Of a DNA stretch of 31,518 nucleotides, positions 1,676-7,392 are shown piece by piece. Source of the DNA: an uncultured bacterium (GTDB lineage Bacteria; UBP4; UBA4092); contig CAZXWN010000002.1 of the NCBI GenBank assembly GCA_964644695.1, positions 372,001 through 403,518 of the forward strand, given 5' to 3'. A program made the position numbers and the translations under genes. The stretch's first letter is position 1, and every line of letters begins with the position of its first letter. The notes under the pieces are model-generated. The model made no database searches and was not told where the DNA came from. It saw nothing but the letters and a program-made list of their open reading frames with translations.

Positions 1676-4342
1676 TTATCTTTTTTTGATATCCGTTTGC
1701 CATTTCTGGATTTTCATTAAAGCTTCAACCGGGGGGAGAATTGTCAAATCCAGGTTTTTGATTTCCTCAACGATGGGGTCTGGAGCTGTTTCGAAGAAGG
1801 TCAACTGGACGGTGGAGACAGAAGGACGAACCTGGTCTGCCGCTGGAATGTGGGTTTTGGCCAGCTCACTCTGGGCAGATTGAGAATATTTCTCCAAATC
1901 TGCTAACACTTCCTTGGCGCGTTGAATTACGAGTTCAGGAAGTCCCGCCAATCGCCCGACAGCAATACCATAGGAACGGTCACAGGATCCTTCAATTATC
2001 TTGTGCAGGAAAATTACCTGGTCATTCCATTCCCGCACAGCAACATTAAAGTTTTTTATTCCGGTCAGGAACTCCGATAACTGGGTCAGTTCATGGTAAT
2101 GAGTGGCAAACAGAGTACGGGCTTTAATTTTGTCATGAATAAATTCCGCGACAGCCCAGGCAATGGAGAGTCCATCAAAGGTTGATGTTCCTCGGCCTAT
2201 CTCATCCAGTATTAAGAGAGATCTTTCTGTCGCATTATTCAGGATATTGGCCGTCTCATTCATTTCTACCATGAATGTCGATTGACCTCTTAACAGATTG
2301 TCTGAGGCACCGACACGAGTGAAGATTCTATCTATGATACCTACTTTGGCATATTCAGCGGGCACAAATGAACCTATCTGGGCCATCAGGGTGATTAATG
2401 CCACTTGCCGAATATATGTGGATTTACCTGCCATATTAGGCCCTGTAATCAGCAGTAATCGATTATCTGCTGTATCTGCCAGGGTGTCATTTGGTACGAA
2501 TTTTCCTGTAAGGAGTACATTTTCAACGACAGGATGCCGACCATTTCGGATATCCAGGACTGGTTCATCTACTACTTCAGGCTTGATAAAATTTTGGTTC
2601 ACTGCACATTCTGCCAGTGAGCAAAGGACATCTAATTGAGCGAGGGCATCCCCTGTTTTTTGGAGGGCGATTGTTTGTCCCGCTACTTGTTCACGGATTT
2701 GGCAGAATAATTGATATTCCAAATCAATAATTCGTTCTTCGGCGCCCAGGATTTTGGTTTCCCATTCTTTCAGTTCCGGGGTGATGAATCGTTCAGCGTT
2801 TGCCAAGGTCTGTTTTCGTTCATAATCTTCTGGCGTCTTATCCAGATTTGATTTGGTAATCTCAATGTAATAACCAAATACATTATTGAAACGGACTTTT
2901 AGAGACCCAATCCCTGTTCGATTCCTTTCTCTGGCTTCCAACTCCATGACAAATTGTTTGCCATTCCGCGTAATATGTCGAAGGTCATCCAATTCTGCTG
3001 AATAGCCATCTTTGATGATTCCGCCTTCTTTCAGGGAGATGGGAGGTTCTTCCACAATGGCTCTGCCAATAAGAACCCGTAATTCAGGCAAATCCTGCAT
3101 CTGAAGTAATATGTCTGACAGTAATTCGCAGGGAGACTCTGATAATGACTGTGTCAATGTGTTTCGCAGCAGAGGGACTTTGTCTAATGTTCGACCTAAA
3201 GCCAACATATCCCGGGCATTTCCAACGCCGCAGCTCAGTCGCCCCAAGAGCCGTTCGAGATCGTAGACTTCATCCAGATGGTTCTGAATATCTTGTCTCA
3301 ATCGATGTCGTTCCACCAGGGTCGATATCGAGTCTTGTCTTTTAAGCAGGGAACCCAAGTCTAATAAGGGTTGTGATAACCATGCTTTCAGTTTACGTCC
3401 ACCCATCCCGGTTTGGGTCTTGTCTAATATAGCCAGGAGAGATCCCGTTCTGGTTTTATCTCGTTGATTTTCGAATACTTCTAAATTACTTATTGTTGCC
3501 GGGTCTAAAACCAGGTAGTCTTCAAGAGTATAAGTTCTGATTGATCTTAGATGGTCGAGATTGTTTTTTTGAGTATCATACAGATATTGAAGTGCAGCTC
3601 CAGCGGCTCCTATCGCAAGGGTCATGTGGTCGCACCCAAATCCATGGAGGGATGAAGTCCCAAATTGTTTGAGCAGGCTTCGGTAGGCAATATCCCGGTC
3701 ATAGTGATACCCATTTACCGGGTTTACTGAGGCTCCGGGACATTCGGGTAACACTTGTTTAAGGGGTTGCCCATCCAGGCCTAAATCATTTGGAATGAGT
3801 AATTCCCGGGGGGAGATTCTTTGAAATTCTGTTGCAAGTCGGGTGAAGTGGCGAGTGTCATTAAACTCCGTAACTTGAAAGTCCCCCGTTGTTAAATCTA
3901 CTATGGCTAGACCAATAAAAATCTGTTGGCCTTTGCCTGCATGAATGTTTAATGATGCCAGAAAGTTATTAGCTTTTTCATCTAACAGGGCTGTTTCCAA
4001 GACGGTCCCGGGAGTAATGACCCGAGTTACATCTCTTTTTACAATACCCTTGGTGAATCGTGGATCTTCCATTTGGTCACATATGGCAACTTTGTGTCCA
4101 GCCTGGATAAGTCGGGCCATATAGGTTTGAACAGCGTGATAAGGAACTCCTGCCAGAGGGACAGTGTTATCTTTACCCATATGTTTTTTGGTAAGAGTTA
4201 GTTTAAGGGTTTTGGCGCCGATGACGGCATCTTCTCCAAACATCTCATAGAAATCGCCGACTCGAAATAATAAAATCGAGTCAGGATATTGAGACTTAAT
4301 GGATTTATATTGACTCATTAAGGGAGTCAGTGTGTCGGCCAT
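1676..4342 (-). CDS. mutS: DNA mismatch repair protein MutS (MutS1)
   Basis: N-terminal TPLMSQY and GDFYEMF (Phe-X-Glu), Walker A GPNMAGKST, DEIGRGTST, SYGIAVG helix-turn-helix, and a C-terminal QLTFF beta-clamp-like motif. 888 aa. Confidence 0.98.
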   Translation of the reverse strand: MADTLTPLMSQYKSIKSQYPDSILLFRVGDFYEMFGEDAVIGAKTLKLTLTKKHMGKDNTVPLAGVPYHAVQTYMARLIQAGHKVAICDQMEDPRFTKGIVKRDVTRVITPGTVLETALLDEKANNFLASLNIHAGKGQQIFIGLAIVDLTTGDFQVTEFNDTRHFTRLATEFQRISPRELLIPNDLGLDGQPLKQVLPECPGASVNPVNGYHYDRDIAYRSLLKQFGTSSLHGFGCDHMTLAIGAAGAALQYLYDTQKNNLDHLRSIRTYTLEDYLVLDPATISNLEVFENQRDKTRTGSLLAILDKTQTGMGGRKLKAWLSQPLLDLGSLLKRQDSISTLVERHRLRQDIQNHLDEVYDLERLLGRLSCGVGNARDMLALGRTLDKVPLLRNTLTQSLSESPCELLSDILLQMQDLPELRVLIGRAIVEEPPISLKEGGIIKDGYSAELDDLRHITRNGKQFVMELEARERNRTGIGSLKVRFNNVFGYYIEITKSNLDKTPEDYERKQTLANAERFITPELKEWETKILGAEERIIDLEYQLFCQIREQVAGQTIALQKTGDALAQLDVLCSLAECAVNQNFIKPEVVDEPVLDIRNGRHPVVENVLLTGKFVPNDTLADTADNRLLLITGPNMAGKSTYIRQVALITLMAQIGSFVPAEYAKVGIIDRIFTRVGASDNLLRGQSTFMVEMNETANILNNATERSLLILDEIGRGTSTFDGLSIAWAVAEFIHDKIKARTLFATHYHELTQLSEFLTGIKNFNVAVREWNDQVIFLHKIIEGSCDRSYGIAVGRLAGLPELVIQRAKEVLADLEKYSQSAQSELAKTHIPAADQVRPSVSTVQLTFFETAPDPIVEEIKNLDLTILPPVEALMKIQKWQTDIKKR

Positions 4343-4414
4343 AGTAAAGATTCCATACTTCCTTAAAGTTTACAAGTTATTGAATATTATCATATAAGAT
4401 TTAAGGAACATTAG

Positions 4415-4590
4415 AAAAAAGATGTGTGGTTTGTGGCAGGATTTGAAATGGTCGGGGGCATTGTGAATCATCCGCATCCCCACTCACAATGCCCCAGAAA
4501 CCAAATTCTTTTTACCCGTTTGGTTACCTTTGCCCTCCATCCCTGAAAGGCCAAACTGGTAATCTTGATTTATGAAACCATTTCAACATC
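4415..4590 (-). ncRNA. Putative sigma54-dependent structured sRNA with GGA-bearing loops (structured core 4440-4590)
   Basis: Closing stem 4577-4590 with 4440-4452. Hairpin 4512-4562 has loop CAGGGAUGGAGGGC. Hairpin 4455-4495 has a 12 bp perfect stem and loop GGGGAUGCGGAUG. A U6 run lies at 4420-4415. It starts at the predicted +1 of the sigma54 promoter. Confidence 0.6.
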
Positions 4591-4600
4591 AATTAGTTAG

Positions 4601-4617
4601 AGCAATAGTTGTGCCAA
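4601..4617 (-). promoter_or_regulatory. sigma54 (RpoN) -24/-12 promoter
   Basis: Minus strand reads TTGGCAC-AACTA-TTGCT, an exact match to the consensus TGGCAC-N5-TTGCW. Predicted +1 is about 4590. Confidence 0.8.
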
Positions 4618-4655
4618 CTTGTTTGTATGAGGTTGGTTAGAGATAACTTCTATAA

Positions 4656-4668
4656 AATCAATGTTCTA
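4656..4668. promoter_or_regulatory. IHF-like binding site between the sigma54 promoter and the putative enhancer sites
   Basis: AATCAATGTTCTA versus consensus WATCAANNNNTTR (one mismatch), in an AT-rich context at the usual position. Confidence 0.4.
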
Positions 4669-4698
4669 TTTAAATAAAGGCTTTTTACTGGGTTGTTG

Positions 4699-4754
4699 TG
4701 TGTATAGTTAACGTAACACATATATGTTGTTTTGTATGTTTATTGGGCAACATA
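4699..4754. promoter_or_regulatory. Putative upstream activator (enhancer-binding protein) sites
   Basis: Palindromes TGTGT-N12-ACACA (4699-4720) and TATGTT-N8-AACATA (4735-4754, containing TGT-N10-ACA), about 110-165 bp upstream of the predicted sigma54 start. Confidence 0.45.
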
Positions 4755-4823
4755 ACCTATGGAAATGGAATCTAGCGGTTAGTTGGAGGTTAGTTTTTAT
4801 CGCATGGATTGAAAAGAAGTGCA

Positions 4824-4832
4824 TGATATAAT
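4824..4832 (+). promoter_or_regulatory. Extended -10 promoter for rfbB
   Basis: TGaTATAAT, 25 nt upstream of ATG 4858, with SD AGAAGGA in between. Confidence 0.5.
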
Positions 4833-4857
4833 TGCGACAGGACAGAAGGATTCTTAT

Positions 4858-5856
4858 ATGAAATGGTTAATAACGGGTGGATGTGGTTTTTTGGGTTCTA
4901 ATTTCATACGTTATTGGTTAAGGCATCATCCCAATGATGTCATAGTAAATTATGACAAGTTGACCTATGCAGGGAATCTTGAGAATTTACGGGATATCGA
5001 AAATAATCCCCGGTATCAATTTGTTCATGGAGACATAGCCGATAAGAATTTGATTGAACAGTGGGTATCTGCTGTGGATGGGGTAGTGAATTTTGCTGCT
5101 GAAACGCATGTGGATCGTTCAATACAAAACCCTGAGGTTTTTATTCAAACTGATGTCATCGGTACTTACAATATTTTAGAAATATGCCGCAGAACAGGGA
5201 AACGTCTAATACAAATCAGCACCGATGAAGTTTATGGAACTTGTGATGCAGGTTCTTTCTCAGAAACCGCCTCTCTGTCACCCGGGAATCCATATTCAGC
5301 CAGCAAGGCGGGTGGAGACCTGCTTTGTATGTCCTATCAAAAAACCTATGGCATGAATCTTAATATTATCCGGTCCTGTAACGGGTATGGTCCTTTTCAA
5401 TATCCAGAGAAGCTGATTCCCTTATTTATTACCCATCTTTTAGAAAAGAAAAAACTTCCGTTATATGGGGATGGAAGTCAGGTCCGGCAATGGATATTTG
5501 CAGAAGATTTTTGTTCCGCCCTGGAAATAATCATTCAAAAAGGGGTTCCGGGTGAAATCTATAACATCACCACAGGTGAGTCCTGTACGAATCTGGAAAT
5601 GACCAGACGGCTGTTGGATTTAATGGGATTTGAAGAGGATTGGATAGAATCCGTTGTTGACCGGCCGGGTCATGATAAACGATATTCAATGACAGGCGAT
5701 AAACTCCAAAGTTTGGGATGGAAACCCGTTTATACTTTGGATACAGGCCTCCCTTATACGGTTCGTTGGTATAGAGAGCATTCTGACTGGTGGAAAATAC
5801 TTAAGAGTGGCGAATACTTGGAGTATTATCGTCGGCAATATATTGAACGAAATTAG
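4858..5856 (+). CDS. rfbB: dTDP-glucose 4,6-dehydratase
   Basis: Motifs ITGGCGFLGSNF, DKLTYAGN, AAETHVDRSI, STDEVYG, YSASK, YQ/FQYPEKLIP-type segment and DRPGHDKRY. Start moved from the track's 4819 to ATG 4858 because of the SD. Confidence 0.93.
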   Translation: MKWLITGGCGFLGSNFIRYWLRHHPNDVIVNYDKLTYAGNLENLRDIENNPRYQFVHGDIADKNLIEQWVSAVDGVVNFAAETHVDRSIQNPEVFIQTDVIGTYNILEICRRTGKRLIQISTDEVYGTCDAGSFSETASLSPGNPYSASKAGGDLLCMSYQKTYGMNLNIIRSCNGYGPFQYPEKLIPLFITHLLEKKKLPLYGDGSQVRQWIFAEDFCSALEIIIQKGVPGEIYNITTGESCTNLEMTRRLLDLMGFEEDWIESVVDRPGHDKRYSMTGDKLQSLGWKPVYTLDTGLPYTVRWYREHSDWWKILKSGEYLEYYRRQYIERN

Positions 5857-5910
5857 ATTTTTCATAAGCTTGAAATCGTTTTTAAAATGCAGGTTTTGGA
5901 GGGATGCTTC

Positions 5911-7392
5911 ATGATGAATATTATGAAGATTGGAATATTGATTGTACTTATTACAGGAATGAATTTGAGTCTTGCCTGGGCATCCCCCTCTTGTAATAAA
6001 TCCACAACGGGTGGAGTTCCAGACACAAAAATCCAGTCTGCAGTTTCCAATCCCGCATATACAAATTATGATATGTCTCCCAGGATTGTCCTGGCCAATA
6101 AAGAAACAGAGATAGTTATTACACCCCGAAGTAGTCAAAATTCTTTTAGCTCAATGAAAAACTATCGTATTACCTATGTTCCTATTCGCAACATAAATCT
6201 CAGCGGAAAGTGGAGTTGGGATCAGCGACAAAAAACACCAAAGCTGGTAAATGGTTCTCTCAAGCTTTATTTGTATTTTGAGGGTGAACAGGAACATATG
6301 CTTCGTTTGGAAGAAGTAAGTTTGTTGAGTACTAAACTTCTGGGGGATTTTCGAGTCTATTCTGTCTTTGATGATTTGTATGAAAAAACTCCACTGAAAG
6401 GTGAAATGCATAGCCATACCAATCGATCTGATGGAGTTGAGGAGCCCAAGATAGTGGCAGGTACTTATAGGAAGTATGGGTATGATTTCCTGGCTATTAC
6501 AGACCATTATTTGTATGCACCTTCAATAGAAGCTATCAATTTCTACCAACCCTTGAATTTGGATTTCAAATTGTTTCCCGGTGAAGAAGTCCAACCACTG
6601 GAAATGTCATATGTGCATACCGTTAGTTTTGGAGCCAGTACTGGAATTGCAAATTTAATGTTAAATAGAACTCAGTATCTGAAGGAAGTAGATGCCATTC
6701 AAAGTATGCTTCCTGCCGCTCCGGCGGGGGTGAGTGCAAGAGATTATGCCATTCTTGCCTGGGTTTATACCAAAATCAGAGAAAATGGTGGGATGAGTAT
6801 TTTGGCTCATCCCTACTGGCAATATAACTTTCAAAACTATCCTTCCGAACCTTTACTGGATTGTCTGCTTGAGCGCCGTCATTTTGATGCATATGAGATT
6901 ATTAGTGGATATTCAGCCAGTGAACAAGAGTTTCAAAATTTACAAGTCACCCGTTATTATGAGGAATATTTTCAAGGCAGGAAACTCCCTGTTGTTGGTA
7001 ATGGGGATACACATGGTGTAAATACCGGGACCCTTTTCAATTGGTATTTCAGTCTCGTATTTTCTCCTTCGGCAGATTTATCCGATATTATCCAAAGTGT
7101 GAAGAGCTTGAACTCGGTAGCCGTTACGCAAGTTAATGGAGCCAGCCCCACCATATATGGGCCTCATCGGTTAATAAAATATGGAAACTTCCTTTTGCGA
7201 GAAGTCTTCCCTGAGCACCATGTACTTTGCAATACTGAAGGCGATTTAATGTTGCAATATGCTAATGGAAACACTGCCGCTGGTACGCAATTACAAGCAC
7301 TGAAAGGACAAACTTCCGCATACTGGAAACATATCAAGGGATTGGATGTTACCTCTGCTGGCAATCCAGATTTGATTTCTGATTTGGAATAG
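5911..7392 (+). CDS. Secreted PHP-domain metallohydrolase (CehA/McbA-like)
   Basis: Signal peptide ending AWA. PHP metal ligands HSHT..SDG, ITDH, GEE, H, LAHP and GDTH. Start ATG 5911 follows GGAGGG. Confidence 0.8.
   Translation: MMNIMKIGILIVLITGMNLSLAWASPSCNKSTTGGVPDTKIQSAVSNPAYTNYDMSPRIVLANKETEIVITPRSSQNSFSSMKNYRITYVPIRNINLSGKWSWDQRQKTPKLVNGSLKLYLYFEGEQEHMLRLEEVSLLSTKLLGDFRVYSVFDDLYEKTPLKGEMHSHTNRSDGVEEPKIVAGTYRKYGYDFLAITDHYLYAPSIEAINFYQPLNLDFKLFPGEEVQPLEMSYVHTVSFGASTGIANLMLNRTQYLKEVDAIQSMLPAAPAGVSARDYAILAWVYTKIRENGGMSILAHPYWQYNFQNYPSEPLLDCLLERRHFDAYEIISGYSASEQEFQNLQVTRYYEEYFQGRKLPVVGNGDTHGVNTGTLFNWYFSLVFSPSADLSDIIQSVKSLNSVAVTQVNGASPTIYGPHRLIKYGNFLLREVFPEHHVLCNTEGDLMLQYANGNTAAGTQLQALKGQTSAYWKHIKGLDVTSAGNPDLISDLE

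Follow-up and report, generated by a model that had tools for sequence, protein, structure and literature searches.

Sequestering small RNAs (sRNAs) are exemplified by the pairs CsrB–CsrA, GlmY–RapZ and CrcZ–Hfq, and GlmY, the decoy of RapZ, depends on GlrR and sigma-54. In Pseudomonas, the rsmZ gene lies in an rpoS-fdxA-mutS neighbourhood, and the G-rich RNAs RosA of Bacillus and RsaI of Staphylococcus sponge C-rich sRNAs. The Qrr sRNAs are described as controlled by LuxO and sigma-54 (PMC4878744, PMC11407668), and CrcZ and CrcY as controlled by CbrB (PMC8871633, PMC6296734). The present analysis concerns a putative sRNA gene that can be compared with all of these systems. It lies upstream of mutS in a 31,518-nucleotide stretch of DNA from an uncultured bacterium (contig CAZXWN010000002.1), hereafter the window. 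A first-pass annotation of the window had proposed a novel structured sRNA dependent on sigma-54, and this reading is supported by a conserved promoter, an activator-type block upstream of it, two conserved hairpins and compensatory base changes in a second genus.

Like CsrB, CsrC, RsmX, RsmY and RsmZ, the RNA presents GGA, and even GGAUG, in the hairpin loops of what would be a stand-alone sRNA. Unlike them, it has two conserved loop motifs instead of many and no match in Rfam, and no CsrA was found in its phylum; their promoters depend on GacA/UvrY, whereas its own is of the sigma-54 type. With the Vibrio Qrr RNAs it shares a sigma-54 promoter, an upstream activator site (here a candidate), the build of a short multi-hairpin sRNA and an Hfq-containing organism, and by analogy we favour Qrr as the functional model. 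It differs from Qrr in sequence and structure, in which no match was found, in being a single copy and not a set of paralogs, and in that its conserved parts are G-rich hairpin loops. CrcZ, CrcY and GlmY are also sigma-54-dependent and act by protein titration, which makes them the model for one of the rival explanations weighed below. They are gammaproteobacterial, whereas the window RNA belongs to two genera of an unrelated candidate phylum, matches no Rfam family and carries no A-rich array of Hfq motifs. What it has in common with RosA and RsaI is single-stranded, G-rich tracts able in principle to pair with the C-rich loops of sRNAs, and the same genomes do carry a C-rich sRNA candidate; unlike in those systems, the pairing is no better than chance here, and there is no homology. 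By analogy, the RNA would work like the proteobacterial sigma-54 sRNAs (Qrr, CrcZ/CrcY, GlmY and the NtrC-dependent RNAs) while belonging to none of them.

A paired RNA element shared by two genera

The comparison covers five genomes of the phylum, namely that of the window (G000; 3.07 Mb, 98.7% complete), G001 and G002 of the same family, and G003 and G004 of a second family. The lineage consists of uncultured sludge and digester bacteria, with five known species-level genomes. Their MutS proteins are 68% (G001 and G002), 62% (G003) and 61% (G004) identical to that of the window. Since MutS-anchored scans of public genome and metagenome contigs returned no MutS above 52% identity, and hence no usable relatives, the comparative evidence is confined to these four.

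Upstream of mutS in G001, the promoter, a 19-nt upstream block and both hairpins occupy the same place as in the window. The gene on the upstream side is not the same in the two genomes; it is therefore mutS, and not the region as a whole, that the RNA accompanies. Twenty-three base pairs are common to the two sequences, and all 46 cells of the resulting comparison are standard pairs, with both partners changed in 12 pairs and a single partner in 3. Hairpin 1 keeps nine of its nine shared pairs (five changed on both sides), and hairpin 2 keeps 14 of 14 (seven changed on both sides, two on one), including a G·U pair present in both species. None of 500 column shuffles of the alignment attained any of the five measures used, and pairing fell to 33-54% when the 3' partners were slid by one to three columns. 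When given no structure, RNAalifold also predicted hairpin 2 in full and, for hairpin 1, these lower stems. The covariation that the first-pass annotation had proposed to look for upstream of mutS is thus present in this pair of sequences, with both hairpins kept through 12 compensatory double changes.

While about half of the stem sequence differs, the loop blocks are identical in the two genomes. The conserved blocks are AUAAA(U)CAAG, close to the 5' end; GGAGGGC(C)AAAGG, at the apex of hairpin 1, with its loop core GGAGGGC unchanged; and GAGUGGGGAUGC, atop hairpin 2. Without selection acting on RNA structure, it is difficult to account for twelve double compensations around loops that do not vary, and we consider it highly probable, on these comparative grounds, that a selected RNA structure stands behind a sigma-54 promoter. 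The G·U pairs of the shared structure (one in the window, five in G001) would become C-A mismatches on the opposite strand, so that the fold belongs to the strand that the promoter would transcribe. The strand had at first been deduced from a single G·U pair, and the five further ones of G001 agree with it.

In the window itself, the closing stem, both hairpins and the confinement of four GGA to two loops are all found where the first-pass annotation had placed them. The 176-nt stretch 4590-4415 contains exactly four GGA (4542, 4538, 4479 and 4473), all of them in the two loops. This count is at chance level, 3.3 being expected from composition, as opposed to the three occurrences of GGAUG against 0.27 expected. 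The window RNA folds at -58 kcal/mol in RNAfold (z -2.5; 3 of 200 shuffles as good), and the G001 RNA at -63.9 kcal/mol (z -3.7; 0 of 200). Taken alone, the description of the window sequence is only moderately beyond chance.

Some of the loop features present in the window do not extend to G001, where the closing stem, the five apical pairs of hairpin 1, the word GGGAUG(C)GGA common to both loops, the second GGA of each loop and the rule that GGA occurs only in loops are not conserved. The G001 RNA has six GGA, two in loops and four in stems, and two GGAUG, the second in the base of hairpin 1 and not in a loop. The apical pairing of hairpin 1 also differs between the two species. Folding of the window RNA retained hairpin 2 and the lower part of hairpin 1 as first described, and closed the apex of hairpin 1 differently: in the minimum-energy fold, GCCUUUCA pairs with UGGAGGGC around a GGGA loop, and the first five bases of the RNA pair with ACAUC just 5' of the U-run. 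A/U-rich linkers precede hairpin 2 in both genomes, and a U-tail follows it in G001 only.

Table. Positions of the RNA element, its upstream region, the adjoining genes and the second sRNA candidate (window coordinates unless a genome is named)
Feature	Position	Strand	Remarks
Candidate upstream activator site, TGTTACGTTAACTATACAC (TGT-N12-ACA)	4700-4718	minus	about -128 to -110 from the predicted start
Second upstream block, AAGTTATCTCT	4639-4649	minus	between candidate activator site and promoter; AAGTTATC-CT conserved in the alignment with G001
Sigma-54 (-24/-12) promoter, TTGGCAC-N5-TTGCT	4601-4617	minus	TTGGCAC 4617-4611, 5 nt, TTGCT 4605-4601
Predicted transcription start, G	4590	minus	12 nt past the C (4602, taken as -12) of TTGC; usual sigma-54 spacing
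Closing stem	4590-4577 with 4452-4440	minus	13 bp, one bulged G
Closing stem, 3' strand	4440-4452	minus	seen in the window; no support from G001, whose alignment lacks the columns of the 5' partner
5' block, AUAAAUCAAG	4564-4573	minus	predicted single-stranded (unpaired probability >0.7); aligns with AUAAA-CAAG of G001
Hairpin 1	4512-4562	minus	5+6+5 bp possible; lower stems 4560-4551 with 4523-4514 conserved
Hairpin 1 apex block, GGAGGGCAAAGG	4538-4527	minus	conserved
Hairpin 2	4455-4495	minus	14-bp stem (12 Watson-Crick pairs, G·U and U-A); 13-nt loop GGGGAUGCGGAUG (4481-4469)
Hairpin 2 block, GAGUGGGGAUGC	4485-4474	minus	invariant, 12 of 12 identical in window and G001
U6 run	4415-4420	minus	possible 3' end (RNA of about 176 nt); follows an unstructured C-rich stretch
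mutS	1676-4342	minus	all five MutS domains found; downstream neighbour of the RNA gene in both genera
NAD-dependent epimerase/dehydratase gene	4819-5856		divergent from mutS
Second sRNA candidate, G000	C12:77083-77180 (L213:384-480)	plus	
Second sRNA candidate, G001	L202:1501-1600	plus	
Second sRNA candidate, G003	L206:383-480	plus	
Second sRNA candidate, G004	L198, about 1400-1517	minus	

The open reading frame (ORF) listing and domain search of the window place the element in a 476-bp gap between mutS and the epimerase gene. No ORF of at least 60 amino acids was found between 4343 and 4818, and a conserved peptide encoded by the RNA stretch is unlikely because the gaps between the window and G001 sequences are 14, 8 and 1 nt long. 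Beside the epimerase gene lies an ORF of 501 amino acids (5887-7392, plus strand) that belongs to no Pfam family.

Sigma-54 promoter and upstream region

The RpoN consensus promoter claimed for the minus strand is present and predicts a transcription start at G4590. Its full 12-base consensus occurs four times in the 3.07 Mb genome, for about 0.3 expected by arithmetic from base composition. At the aligned place upstream of mutS, G001 reads TTGGCAT-N5-TTGCT. The relaxed pattern TTGGCAY-N5-TTGCT is found five times in G001, four in G003, three in G004 and not at all in G002, with zero or one occurrence of the reversed pattern used as control. The gene rpoN was found in all five genomes, and that of the window carries eight strong Sigma54_activat genes, so that the sigma factor called for by the first-pass annotation is present along with potential activators.

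Glutamine synthetase behind an NtrC/sigma-54 promoter is the classical arrangement. In G003, TTGGCAT-N5-TTGCT stands before the glutamine synthetase gene glnA (L203 on G003:C23, 111212-111228, minus strand), and because of this position the consensus can be taken as valid in the phylum. G002 possesses rpoN and 14 strong activator genes, yet has no exact site where its relatives have three to five; either its sigma-54 promoters deviate from TTGGCAY-N5-TTGCT or the pattern is too strict. Two further perfect sigma-54 promoters were observed in the genome of the window. One of them, TGGCAC-N5-TTGCT at C12:4270, precedes another classical sigma-54 target, a pilin-type gene with an N_methyl motif (G000:C12:3831-5814, L214:532-2515, minus strand), itself directly downstream of a gene for a PilR-like response regulator and sigma-54 activator, and G001 (L208) has the same arrangement. 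The other (C5:120332) precedes an ORF of 371 amino acids with a signal-peptide-like start and no Pfam family (G000:C5:119159-120274, L215:260-1375, minus strand).

The 19-nt upstream block has the layout TGTTAC-N-TTA-N-CTATACAC, which we read as TGT-N12-ACA. It lies 101 nt upstream of TTGGCAY in the window and 92 nt upstream in G001; the sites align, and the 9-nt difference is near one helical turn. Across the five genomes, the corresponding 19-nt pattern TGTTACNTTANCTATACAC is matched without mismatch only at the window locus and at the equivalent place in G001. Its position and conservation suggest an enhancer-binding activator site, here called an upstream activator site. One site in G002 with a single mismatch to the pattern was discarded, because the region that follows it is protein-coding and shows no canonical -24/-12 motif. 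The second upstream block might bind a DNA-bending protein, which is only a guess.

The cognate activator could not be named by its phyletic pattern. None of the eight activators tracks the RNA, because all of them have reciprocal best hits both in G001 and in G002, which lacks the RNA; this comparison of distributions left out three activator genes of G004.

Strain contigs from three other sequencing runs are without a single difference across 4307-4633, which includes the promoter, the RNA and the mutS leader. The same contigs have 5 variable sites in 4148-4306 (mutS) and 11 in 4634-4778 (the upstream spacer), none of them inside the two conserved upstream blocks. These contigs come from probable DNA runs and have no bearing on expression.

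Distribution and molecular partners

Scanned with cmscan, the whole window matches no Rfam family at gathering thresholds. A permissive scan of 4340-4820, with E up to 10, gave five chance-level matches to models of eukaryotic or CRISPR RNAs; each scored far under its gathering threshold, and no Csr/Rsm family was among them. The G001 locus matches no Rfam family either, and the covariance models of Qrr (RF00378), GlmY, GlmZ and CrcZ have no match in the window or at the G001 locus. The first-pass annotation, which had not recognised the family, is borne out by these scans. The literature on sigma-54 RNA systems, as far as the available excerpts extend, yielded only the known proteobacterial and spirochaetal systems, and no search was aimed at a prior publication of this RNA.

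In the 3.07 Mb genome, the RNA stretch has one match, which is itself, and the covariance model of the RNA likewise finds one copy per genome. As a single copy, it is not a repetitive extragenic palindrome (REP), a miniature inverted-repeat transposable element (MITE) or another repeat. Among 151 genomes, including the five of the phylum, the model matches only G000 and G001, and blastn across 41 genomes returned only the query. A model search with filters off, restricted to the loci upstream of mutS in G002, G003 and G004 and to the G002 locus resembling the activator site, gave only noise (best E 0.37). We class the RNA as a genuine new family whose functional kind is known; its distribution is narrow, covering 2 of the 151 genomes searched.

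The 11-mer AGTGGGGATGC occurs at eight places in three of the five genomes, six of them outside the two RNA loci and without the context of promoter and hairpins. In G002, where no copy of the RNA was detected, the 3' part of the gene upstream of mutS contains a hairpin flanked, on the mutS-sense strand (L164:1362-1417), by CCATCCC and GCCCTCCAT. Both flanks are perfectly complementary to segments of the hairpin 1 loop of the window RNA (GGGAUGG and AUGGAGGGC), and beyond them, at L164:1422-1472, GGTTACAG/CTGTAACC is repeated. The complementarity is possibly only a likeness to Shine-Dalgarno and anti-Shine-Dalgarno sequences.

A second candidate for a sigma-54-driven sRNA was observed in four of the five genomes (G000, G001, G003 and G004). 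The unit consists of TTGGCAY-N5-TTGCT, about 25 nt, and a terminator hairpin (GGAGCAG...CUGCUCC followed by a U-run) with a conserved C-rich loop UCCCCCUUC, and it has no family match in Rfam. Just upstream of its promoter in G003 (L206:14-125, on G003:C40), two adjacent, near-threshold matches to the Rfam family Acido-Lenti-1 lie on opposite strands; their scores of 36.8 and 29.8 bits fall short of the family's gathering score, which is 37. A duplex between the window RNA and this second sRNA was rejected, as shuffled partners did at least as well in 43% and 60% of the trials with full-length RNAs, and in 49% and 73% of those with the loops only.

As for protein partners, the CsrA profile PF02599 found nothing over its cut-off in the genome of the window or in any of the five phylum genomes, and it does match in E. 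coli, B. subtilis and T. maritima, which served as positive controls. The first-pass annotation had suggested a protein-sequestering RNA of the Csr type and had tied this model to the presence of CsrA; as none was found, the reading as a CsrB/Rsm-type sponge of CsrA is refuted. GGA stands at its chance count, GGA is conserved at only two of the four loop positions, and no Csr/Rsm family is matched in Rfam. ProQ was not found in any of the five genomes, and Hfq, another gene the first-pass annotation had proposed to look for, was found in all five.

Proposed action and rival explanations

On balance we lean towards an independent non-coding sRNA gene that would be transcribed from the sigma-54 promoter and act in trans by Hfq-assisted base pairing. 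The RNA would be about 140-175 nt long, its start at 4590 and its end at 4415 being predictions. An enhancer-binding protein at the TGT-N12-ACA block, about 100 bp upstream, would activate the promoter. Since a sigma-54 promoter requires a bacterial enhancer-binding protein, the RNA would be made only upon the signal that activates this protein. In the two long hairpins, the stems would be free to drift as long as pairing is kept, with constant apices GGAGGGC (hairpin 1) and GUGGGGAUGC (hairpin 2). Because the stems vary freely while the G-rich apices stay fixed, we read the loops as recognition surfaces, which would most likely pair with C/U-rich stretches of other RNAs. Hfq would assist this pairing, and is favoured because it is the sole one of the three classical sRNA chaperones found in the phylum. 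The trans-acting, Hfq-assisted mechanism is a reasoned guess; the transcription of the RNA, its start and end, its action in trans, the involvement of Hfq and the targets are likewise inferred.

Several observations weigh against this proposal. The covariation comes from only two sequences and amounts to no statistical proof, and the covariance model has no hit in G002 (the family's third genus), in G003 and G004 (the other family) or in 146 other genomes. Among the listed sequencing runs that contain the stretch, none is on record as RNA, and the runs marked 'RNA?' that were examined look like DNA and are contigs. The 3' end is uncertain because no canonical G+C-rich hairpin adjoins the U6 and the terminator scan gives none: it found nothing at the RNA in the window or in G001, within a loop limit of 3-8 nt that excludes hairpin 2, and in the window no U-run follows this hairpin. 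The RNA may therefore end anywhere from about 4455 to 4415, or be read through into mutS. Targets were equally elusive. Pairing of the loops with CAUCC-containing targets, the alternative raised by the first-pass annotation, is possible, but simple searches gave no convincing site for it. Pairing of the loops with the 5' region of mutS is no better than that of shuffled loops (fractions 0.20-0.88), and genome-wide searches for complements of the hairpin 2 core were uninformative. The complement CATCCCCAC has 46 sites in G001 and 35 in the genome of the window, including the complement of the RNA gene; the 30 sites examined in G001 and all 35 in the window's genome lie nearly all inside long open frames, with no start-region site shared between the genomes. 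G-rich seeds are, moreover, unusual among sRNAs that block ribosome-binding sites.

GGAUG, three times in the window RNA and twice in that of G001, also resembles repeated protein-binding sites more than a single seed. It would fit a protein-titrating decoy, in which the GGAUG/GGA loops bind an RNA-binding protein other than CsrA, or Hfq, and the sigma-54-induced RNA sequesters it. The excess of GGAUG over expectation, the likeness of the two G-rich loops, each on its own hairpin and some 60 nt from the other, which would suit a dimeric binder, and the conservation of loop sequences over drifting stems all speak for such a decoy. We nevertheless judge it unlikely: CsrA, to our knowledge the only protein family that reads GGA loops, was not found in the five genomes, no other candidate protein was identified, the two conserved loop motifs are far fewer than in known sponges, and the second GGAUG of G001 sits at a hairpin base. 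Still more doubtful is a convergent, non-homologous Csr-like circuit, in which a regulator replacing CsrA would read GGAUG/GGAGG in the decoy loops, possibly cross-wired with the C-rich sigma-54 sRNA. The probability of a cis-acting leader lies between those of the two decoy models. The sigma-54 promoter would then be a second, signal-dependent promoter of mutS and the RNA its leader or attenuator, with hairpin 2 as terminator and factors bound to the loops deciding on read-through. In both genera the RNA sits immediately before mutS and in the same orientation, despite different genes on its other side. This fits the idea, as does the lack of a canonical terminator between the RNA and mutS, 248 nt downstream, in the window. 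In G001, hairpin 2 has a longer stem with U6 directly after it, which stands in the position of an attenuator; the same feature, a terminator-like 3' end before mutS, speaks for an independent RNA gene. However, the mutS genes of G002, G003 and G004, hence of the third genus and of the other family, lack the element, a terminator loop needs no sequence conservation, and the loops have no special complementarity to the 5' region of mutS. Between the RNA and mutS, a TGn-extended -10-like sequence noticed by eye in both genomes suggests that mutS has a promoter of its own.

The G-rich loops could also make the RNA a sponge of the second sRNA, pairing with its C-rich loop and neutralising an RNA distributed across the phylum. 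Both RNAs share a promoter consensus, the C-rich one occurs in four of the five genomes including G000 and G001, and GGGGAU(G) can be paired by eye with (C)GUCCCC in the genome of the window or AUCCCC in G001. This is very improbable in our view, as the duplex energies are no better than with shuffled partners and the distributions differ (two of five genomes against four of five). Least credible, with only a slight chance, is the absence of any functional RNA, the motifs and hairpins being due to chance or to an element at the DNA level, for instance a palindrome bound by a protein or what remains of a mobile element. No listed run with the stretch is on record as RNA, the z-score of the window fold is modest by itself, and the element occurs in only two genomes. 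Chance or a DNA-level element would, on the other hand, have to accommodate twelve compensatory double changes with 100% pairing, G·U pairs that suit one strand only, a single copy per genome, a promoter and upstream block conserved at the right spacing, and strain contigs identical across the element.

An independent sigma-54 sRNA acting in trans, the reading we prefer, would be of limited practical value, since its carriers are uncultured and the family is small, with nothing so far to indicate its targets. Beyond a few cultured phyla, regulatory RNAs have hardly been explored, and the window RNA is a well-supported candidate in such a lineage. Its CsrA-like loop motifs, in a lineage where no CsrA was detected, raise the question of which RNA or protein reads them. 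Together with the second sRNA candidate, it suggests that riboregulators of this phylum, like those of proteobacteria, are under the control of sigma-54 and its activators.

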